Shown here one piece after another: positions 1-632 of a DNA stretch of 1,818 nt. Position 1 is the stretch's first letter. The number at the start of each line of letters is the position of its first letter. The position numbers and the translations under genes were made by a program. The stretch lies in assembly GCF_003334385.1 (NCBI RefSeq), contig NZ_QOWN01000108.1. One strand, given 5' to 3'. The notes below the pieces were generated by a model. That model had not been told where the DNA came from. It did not search any database and was given only the letters and a program-made list of their open reading frames with translations. This stretch comes from Escherichia coli. Its GTDB lineage: Bacteria > Pseudomonadota > Gammaproteobacteria > Enterobacterales > Enterobacteriaceae.

Positions 1-632
1 GCCTGCCGGGGCAGCAGTATGATGAGGAGTCCGGCCTGTATTACAACCGCCACCGCTATTATGACCCGCTGCAGGGGAGGTATATCACTCAGGATCCGAT
101 TGGGCTGAAGGGGGGATGGAATTTTTATCAGTATCCGCTGAATCCGGTTCAGTATATAGATTCAATGGGACTGGCATCAAAATATGGACACTTAAATAAT
201 GGCGGATATGGAGCGAGACCCAACAAACCGCCTACGCCCGATCCAAGTAAATTGCCGGACATAGCGAAACAATTAAGACTGCCATATCCTATTGACCAGG
301 CCAGTAGTGCGCCTAATGTTTTCAAAACATTCTTCAGAGCATTAAGCCCTTACGACTACACACTGTATTGCAGGAAGTGGGTAAAACCAAATCTGACTTG
401 TACGCCACAGGATGATTCCCAGTATCCAGGGATGGATACAAAGACAGCAAGTGATTACCTGCCACAGACAAATTGGCCAACAACTCAATTACCACCAGGA
501 TATACTTGTGCAGAACCCTATTTATTCCCAGACATTAATAAACCCGATGGGCCAGCAACAGCAGGGATAGATGATTTGGGTGAAATTTTAGCTAAGATGA
601 AACAGAGAACATCGAGAGGAATAAGAAAATGA
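1..632 (+). CDS. Rhs-family polymorphic toxin, 3' end (5'-partial; codons in phase from position 3): conserved Rhs core terminus plus variable C-terminal toxin (CT) domain; stop TGA 630-632
   Basis: The frame is open from the window start to 632. Translation begins [57 protein letters not shown], which matches the conserved terminal block of the RHS repeat-associated core domain (E. coli RhsA-type cores end ...[30 protein letters not shown]...NP....DPLGL). The ATG at 165 given by the ORF track is internal (Met inside the demarcation motif), not the true start. Whether this is a full-length rhs or an orphan fragment (possibly ybfO/rhsO of E. coli K-12) cannot be decided from the window. Confidence 0.9.
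54..173 (+). other. Rhs core C-terminal signature block, ending in the core/CT demarcation motif [10 protein letters not shown] (144-173), a variant of the canonical PxxxxDPxGL
   Basis: Direct translation: [40 protein letters not shown]. Established knowledge: in Rhs/YD-repeat toxins the PxxxxDPxGL motif marks the end of the conserved core and the start of the variable toxin domain. Confidence 0.85.
174..629 (+). other. Variable C-terminal toxin (CT) domain of the Rhs protein, about 152 aa, activity unknown
   Basis: Sequence after DSMGL: [42 protein letters not shown]...[22 protein letters not shown]. It is proline-rich, has 3 Cys, and shows no HNH, HxxD, deaminase or other catalytic motif I can recognise by eye. 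Hand-counted GC is about 42% in 241-300, against about 59% in 1-120. Confidence 0.7.
614..619 (+). promoter_or_regulatory. Ribosome-binding site for the immunity gene, located inside the 3' end of the toxin ORF
   Basis: AGAGGA at 614-619, 9 nt before ATG 629. Confidence 0.6.

Follow-up and report, generated by a model that had tools for sequence, protein, structure and literature searches.

The Asp-Ser-Met-Gly-Leu (DSMGL) sequence that closes the Rhs core in the stretch of Escherichia coli DNA analyzed here (1,818 nucleotides, hereafter the window) is a naturally occurring minority variant of a known consensus, PxxxxDPxGL; it is fixed, is linked to the tip, and lies in a well-known locus. We consider it quite probable that DSMGL is the native core/tip junction of one family of toxin tips (the ybfO type, with YbfC as its partner), that the C-terminal plug carrying it would most likely still be autoproteolytic on full-length PAAR-Rhs proteins, and that the copy in K-12 is an orphan left by displacement.

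The window is 100% identical over its whole length to the chromosome of E. coli O16:H48 (K-12 lineage; NZ_CP043185.1) and represents the rhsC locus of E. coli K-12, with the 3′ end of an orphan Rhs gene (ybfO/rhsO), ybfC, and ISAs1 remnants. The gene order in the O16:H48 record is kdpFAB, ybfA, rhsC (1397 amino acids), ybfB, the Rhs fragment, ybfC, ybfQ, further ISAs1 remnants, and ybgA; in the locus retrieved from that record (L001), rhsC occupies positions 3562 to 7755, ybfB 7755 to 8081, and the orphan Rhs 8112 to 9632. The annotation of NZ_CP043185.1 labels the orphan as a pseudogene “missing N-terminus.” In the window, where all features described here lie on the + strand, the 3′ end of the orphan spans 3 to 632 (209 codons and a stop), with a translation that matches NZ_CP043185.1 at 100%. 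It is followed by ybfC (629 to 1198; 189 residues in the open reading frame list and the annotation), the presumed cognate immunity gene, and by ybfQ (1424 to 1678), annotated as an N-terminal fragment of an ISAs1-family (H-rpt) transposase and matching positions 1 to 51 of 314 of NCBIfam NF033564. A 158-nt direct repeat was also found, with one copy at 1281 to 1438, the 5′ end of an ISAs1 copy, and the other at 1661 to 1818, which holds the start (1804) of the next ISAs1 pseudogene. The two copies are 95% identical and 380 nt apart, and they span the upstream region and start of ybfQ and of the next ISAs1/H-rpt pseudogene. An Rfam scan of the window gave no match, and promoter and terminator sites in it were no commoner than in shuffled controls.

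Translation of positions 3 to 632 bears out the preliminary description, which had reported a noncanonical motif at 144 to 173 with Ser where the consensus has Pro. The motif runs from Pro48 (144 to 146) through the second catalytic Asp, Asp53 (159 to 161), Ser54 (TCA; 162 to 164), Met (165 to 167), and Gly56 (168 to 170) to Leu57 (171 to 173), so that a Gly-Leu pair (168 to 173) stands directly before the tip, at the place of the usual Gly plus Leu, Trp, or Phe. The 57 codons at 3 to 173 are the last of the Rhs core, as judged from the profile ends and from alignment to solved plugs, and correspond to the C-terminal plug, or aspartyl autoprotease region. Their product matches positions 1205 to 1261 of 1261 of the NCBIfam RHS_core profile NF041261 (E value of 7.7e-32) and positions 20 to 76 of 76 of TIGR03696 (Rhs_assc_core; 72.7 bits against a cutoff of 32.5), and it aligns with the C-terminal plug of the solved Rhs proteins 7q97, 8uy4, 8h8a, and 8cp6. 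Because both NCBIfam profiles end on the Leu at 171 to 173, the DSMGL site is the boundary between core and tip, as had been claimed from the sequence. The score of the window fragment against NF041261 is 110 bits, where the full-length equivalog calls for at least 2000, and the complete K-12 orphan open reading frame is a 507-codon fragment without an N-terminus. Downstream of Leu57 lies the toxin tip (Rhs-CT) at 174 to 632, with 152 residues and a stop. A separate tip-only reading frame at 165 to 632 (155 codons, starting at the Met within DSMGL) was also considered; no obvious Shine-Dalgarno sequence was read upstream of it.

Release of the Rhs C-terminus is an aspartyl autoproteolysis that needs both Asp residues of a DPXG-X18-DPXG motif, whose spacing has been described (PMC2935791). 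Cleavage is abolished in the mutants RhsA D1324N/D1346N, Tse5 D1141A/D1164A, TseI D1407A/D1429A, and Rhs1 D1338N, and the toxicity of these uncleavable proteins is strongly attenuated. The cut falls after the last residue of DPxG[LWF], between L1168 and I1169 in Tse5 and after W1350 in RhsA; Rhs1 is cut after its second DPLGL motif, five residues past D1338, with the toxin domain beginning at A1343. The window keeps the Asp dyad. Its first motif is DPIGL (93 to 107). The Asp of this motif (D31; 93 to 95) lines up with the one that is replaced in the cleavage-dead form of Tse15 (8uxt, ...KNPIGL...) and corresponds to the first catalytic Asp, the equivalents of which are RhsA D1324, Tse5 D1141, and TseI D1407. 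D31 and D53 (159 to 161) lie 22 positions apart and align with residues mutated in 8uxt and 8h8b, and the cleavage-dead PDB constructs differ exactly at the two catalytic Asp residues. The spacing in the window is DPIG-X18-DSMG, with Pro after the first Asp and Ser after the second.

The window thus resembles the DPXG-X18-DPXG[LWF] autoproteases (Pseudomonas protegens RhsA, Pseudomonas aeruginosa Tse5, A. dhakensis TseI, P. laumondii Rhs1, A. baumannii Tse15, and TcC/YenC2) in its position at the core end and in its X18 spacing, and it shares with them the two Asp residues, the Gly, and the Leu that closes the motif. It differs from them in the Ser that replaces Pro after the second Asp, in that cleavage here is predicted from sequence, and in that the K-12 motif lies in a fragment without an N-terminal delivery domain. 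Because both catalytic Asp residues are kept with the DPIG-X18-DSMG spacing, cleavage is probably retained where DSMGL stands on a full-length Rhs protein. In a full-length PAAR-Rhs protein, the plug would act through the Asp residues encoded at 93 to 95 and 159 to 161 and cut after the Leu encoded at 171 to 173 (L1247 of the full-length protein). By homology, the predicted scissile bond joins Leu57 and Ala58 (171 to 176, with Ala58 at 174 to 176), and the cut would free the 152-residue tip inside the Rhs cocoon. Papers on Rhs cleavage mutants yielded no mutant of the Pro, and for that reason we infer the tolerance of Ser from conservation only.

Full-length proteins of this kind exist in E. 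coli. In all five strains checked, an intact 4200-nt gene finishes with the same DSMGL junction and tip, at the rhsC locus in E2865 (protein WP_126347089.1), O157:H7 611, and ECONIH4 (WP_104457498.1) and at the rhsB locus (between nikR and yhhJ) in MLI106K1 and MS 69-1. Each of the five genes encodes 1399 residues with the N-terminal start MSGKPAARQGDMTQYGG. The E2865 protein matches the RHS_core equivalog from end to end (2641 bits; cutoff of 2000), and the profile ends at L1247 of DSMGL. In an evenly spaced sample of 60 carriers of the tip, 20 bear the annotation “RHS element core protein”; all five carriers with this label that we opened were full length, and all three opened under the other label (K-12, ATCC 8739, and HUSEC2011) proved to be K-12-type orphans behind rhsC-ybfB. 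The tip therefore sits on a full-length Rhs in roughly a third of carriers. The tip DNA of the K-12 orphan (456 nt) is identical to that of E2865 and ECONIH4, and the rhsC-locus and rhsB-locus alleles of the tip are separated by eight synonymous and three nonsynonymous changes, a pN/pS of about 0.1 from small counts. Full-length Rhs proteins fall into 90% clusters defined by the core. Our first protein search matched proteins only up to about 1.7 times the query length and so gave no full-length context. A 900-residue query for full-length carriers in other genera brought back mostly E. coli fragments, and loci from complete genomes were used instead.

Homologous tips from other organisms were compared. 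Ser follows the second Asp in Salmonella enterica (TDSMGL), in two metagenomic proteins, and in an orphan of Phytobacter ursingii; Ala is found in a 1383-residue full-length Rhs of P. ursingii (IDALGL; RHS_core, 2053 bits), which lies directly downstream of a VgrG gene, and in Acidovorax defluvii (FDAMGL); and Pro occurs in Salmonella salamae, one metagenomic protein, Burkholderia diffusa, Acidovorax, and Ralstonia. The open reading frame that holds the Pro-form tip of B. diffusa is about 1,700 codons long. The Asp, Gly, and Leu of the boundary motif are invariant in all homologous tips compared. In the ybfO-type family, the residue after the second catalytic Asp thus appears to be tolerant, with Ser, Ala, or Pro accepted. 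The P. ursingii DALGL gene (L007, 2404 to 6555) also has DPIRL, not DPIGL, as its first motif, so that a single VgrG-linked gene, apparently intact, departs from the consensus twice, and an orphan farther downstream at this locus has a further DALGL junction, which leads into an unrelated tip. Copies of the E. coli tip with 97 to 99% identity were seen on short contigs of metagenome-assembled genomes labeled Flavobacterium psychrophilum and Candidatus Nanosynbacter (L005 and L006), and a 70%-identical copy was seen on a contig labeled Erysipelotrichia (L009); the tip copies on such oddly labeled contigs are most likely binning contamination by enterobacterial DNA.

The alignment of Rhs core ends that the preliminary description had proposed as a check gave a frequency for the Ser form. 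TIGR03696 has 97,559 representative hits at an E value of 0.001 or less; the best 150 representatives (50%-identity clusters) matched with the last 104 core residues were taken, a sample skewed toward relatives of the E. coli, or enterobacterial, core. The residue after the second Asp could be read in 132 of these: 112 had Pro (85%), 14 had Ser (11%), and the others (4%) were two cases of Ala and single cases of Val, Phe, Arg, and Thr. Counted by distinct tip starts among all fetched sequences, the tally was 126 Pro, 8 Ser, 4 Ala, and 5 others. Another E. coli tip, found at the rhsE locus, likewise has Ser following the Asp (FIDSLGL followed by KFHVNGDP...HEFAH; L022, 6001 to 9696; P0278). It shares the Ser with the tip studied here but is unrelated to it, with a weak match to Peptidase_M91 (E value of 0.002). 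In the clusters examined, the RhsE-locus proteins that we inspected start inside the core and are therefore N-terminally truncated; a DSLGL tip on truncated proteins counts against the reading that cleavage is retained.

The tip itself has no match in Pfam, and an AlphaFold2 model built on a 14-sequence tip alignment (mean pLDDT of 55 and pTM of 0.36) did not have the quality needed for a fold search. In the tip alignment, 26 columns are invariant, among them three Cys residues and an SPYDYTxYC motif, and conservation of the family extends over Enterobacteriaceae and Burkholderiales. The stop codon of the tip overlaps the start of ybfC in K-12 (ATGA; 629 to 632). YbfC has no match in Pfam or NCBIfam, but a YbfC-like reading frame with a hydrophobic N-terminus follows the tip at each locus for which downstream sequence is available (Phytobacter, Acidovorax, Ralstonia, and Burkholderia), and this synteny is kept across six or more genera of Enterobacteriaceae and Burkholderiales. 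YbfC is accordingly presumed to be the cognate immunity protein of the tip, and its signal-peptide-like N-terminus, as read from the sequence, suggests an extracytoplasmic site of action. A literature search on ybfO and ybfC returned no functional study.

One feature of the pair fits poorly with a released toxin. In all three O157:H7 strains checked (L002, 7498 to 8068; L019; L021), ybfC is frameshifted by a C-to-T change and an extra T, which together create a T9 run at codons 6 to 9, and the upstream full-length Rhs gene is intact; in the related O55:H7 strain DEC5A, ybfC is intact. A tip that was silent, inactive, or not released would make an intact toxin gene beside a frameshifted ybfC less of a burden, and the pairing counts against the explanation that we prefer. 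It would fit a harmless toxin, as expected if Ser weakened or abolished C-terminal autoproteolysis so that the tip was released poorly or never and the toxin was crippled or conditionally activated. Such a loss would also agree with Pro being the majority residue (85% of the 132 representatives) and with the presence of DPxG[LWF], Pro included, in every solved or biochemically tested Rhs/Tc protein that we retrieved. Literature searches for DSMGL, DSLGL, and DALGL gave nothing relevant, and we found no published cleavage of a DSxGL or DAxGL Rhs protein. Pei et al. (2020) describe the residues for C-terminal cleavage as conserved “except for RhsA in E. coli EDL933,” an exception that may concern the tip studied here and, if so, would argue against retained cleavage.

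We nevertheless regard a loss or weakening of cleavage as unlikely. The motif has both of its catalytic Asp residues, an unchanged X18 spacing, and the Gly-Leu pair; there are few nonsynonymous changes in the tip reading frame; and the tip is kept together with an intact ybfC at the remaining full-length loci that were checked. Orthologous tips vary between Ser, Ala, and Pro, with Ala on the VgrG-linked full-length DALGL Rhs, and about 15% of the diverse Rhs core ends sampled have a residue other than Pro. The uncleavable mutants of other Rhs proteins are strongly attenuated, so a fixed tip that did not cleave should decay. Rather less credence still is due to the suggestion that Ser or Ala in place of Pro tunes autoproteolysis, making it slower or conditional so that the tip stays tethered until delivery, although tuning of this kind, if true, would likewise explain how O157:H7 can keep its toxin gene intact next to a frameshifted ybfC.

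The preferred reading, a native junction that most likely still cleaves, has also to account for the state of the K-12 copy. Compared with the main rhsC of the same genome, the orphan is 96% identical over 1068 nt, and the identity collapses just after the Asn-Pro codons at 141 to 146. Because the break comes right after Asn-Pro, xxxxD(S/P)xGL belongs to the exchangeable module, which by windowed identity between rhsC and the orphan covers 147 to 632 of the window and includes xxxxDSMGL. Inheritance of the final eight residues of the “core” motif thus follows the tip and not the core. The main RhsC has a core near-identical to that of the orphan up to the Asn-Pro codons but differs beyond them: it has a canonical DPLGL (NPISNIDPLGL followed by ETLKC...), and neither its tip nor its immunity gene, ybfB, is related to that of the orphan.

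This arrangement is that of orphan rhs-CT/rhsI modules such as STM0292 of Salmonella Typhimurium LT2 and the orphans of Dickeya dadantii, which lie downstream of a full-length rhs with their own immunity gene. The K-12 copy has the corresponding position (rhsC, ybfB, and then the orphan), keeps core homology (1068 nt at 96%) without a translation start or N-terminus, as the RefSeq label also records, and is followed by a small, presumably cognate reading frame; the same tip is carried by full-length Rhs proteins elsewhere. It differs from the known modules in that its reloading and its toxin and immunity activities are putative. ECONIH4 (L015, 1287 to 7793) has the downstream layout of K-12 (ybfC, ybfQ, and ISAs1) but carries the tip on its main gene, of 1399 residues, and has no rhsC-CT/ybfB; this arrangement is likely to represent the state of the K-12 locus before displacement. 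Under the C-terminal displacement model (Jackson et al. 2009; PMC2935791), another tip/immunity module, RhsC-CT/ybfB, would have taken over the main gene in K-12 and left the old tip downstream as a displaced orphan that retains about 1.07 kb of homology to the core but lacks an N-terminus. The orphan would then not be made as an Rhs protein, and its Ser would be without consequence unless recombination reloaded the tip onto rhsC, as was demonstrated for an orphan tip of Salmonella (PMC3967940). Because the fragment lacks the N-terminus and its delivery domain, the question of autocleavage does not arise in K-12.

The suggestion that the Ser marks a degenerate or orphan tip therefore holds in one part only. 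The copy in the window is an orphan, labeled “missing N-terminus” by RefSeq and placed downstream of rhsC-ybfB, but the Ser is not a sign of decay or of orphan status, for the same DSMGL stands on intact 1399-residue genes with identical tip DNA and no Pro form was found. Orphans can decay, as illustrated by a Phytobacter orphan with a broken 3′ end (L008), and the K-12 copy does lack its N-terminus; yet a decay mutation gathered in the nonexpressed K-12 pseudogene is a very improbable source of a codon shared by thousands of genomes, carried in identical tip DNA on full-length genes, and common to the roughly 70%-identical tips of Salmonella and Phytobacter. With a 61-nt query centered on the Ser codon, matches came from 3559 of 5426 complete E. 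coli genomes and were exact in 2891, and the variants sampled differ synonymously (Leu CTG to TTG or TTA and a downstream Ser TCA to TCT). A 32-mer around the TCA codon, designed so that each 28-nt seed spans the Ser codon, was found exactly in 3520 of the 5426, and its Pro version (CCA) had no match among these genomes even at an E value of 10 or less. A sequencing or assembly error in the window, which had been raised as a possibility, is ruled out by the 100% identity to K-12 and by exact matches in thousands of complete genomes sequenced independently.

On the sequences sampled, PxxxxDPxGL is a consensus and not a rule, with Ser as a minority of about 10%. If Ser changed the kinetics of cleavage, it would offer a natural handle on the control of Rhs toxin release, and nothing except the O157:H7 oddity points in that direction. 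Beyond annotation hygiene, little is at stake. The DSMGL tip occurs in about two thirds of complete E. coli genomes, and it belongs to the tips that in silico cutting of Rhs proteins at DPxG[LWF] would overlook, about 15% of the total judging by the sampled core ends (20 of 132).
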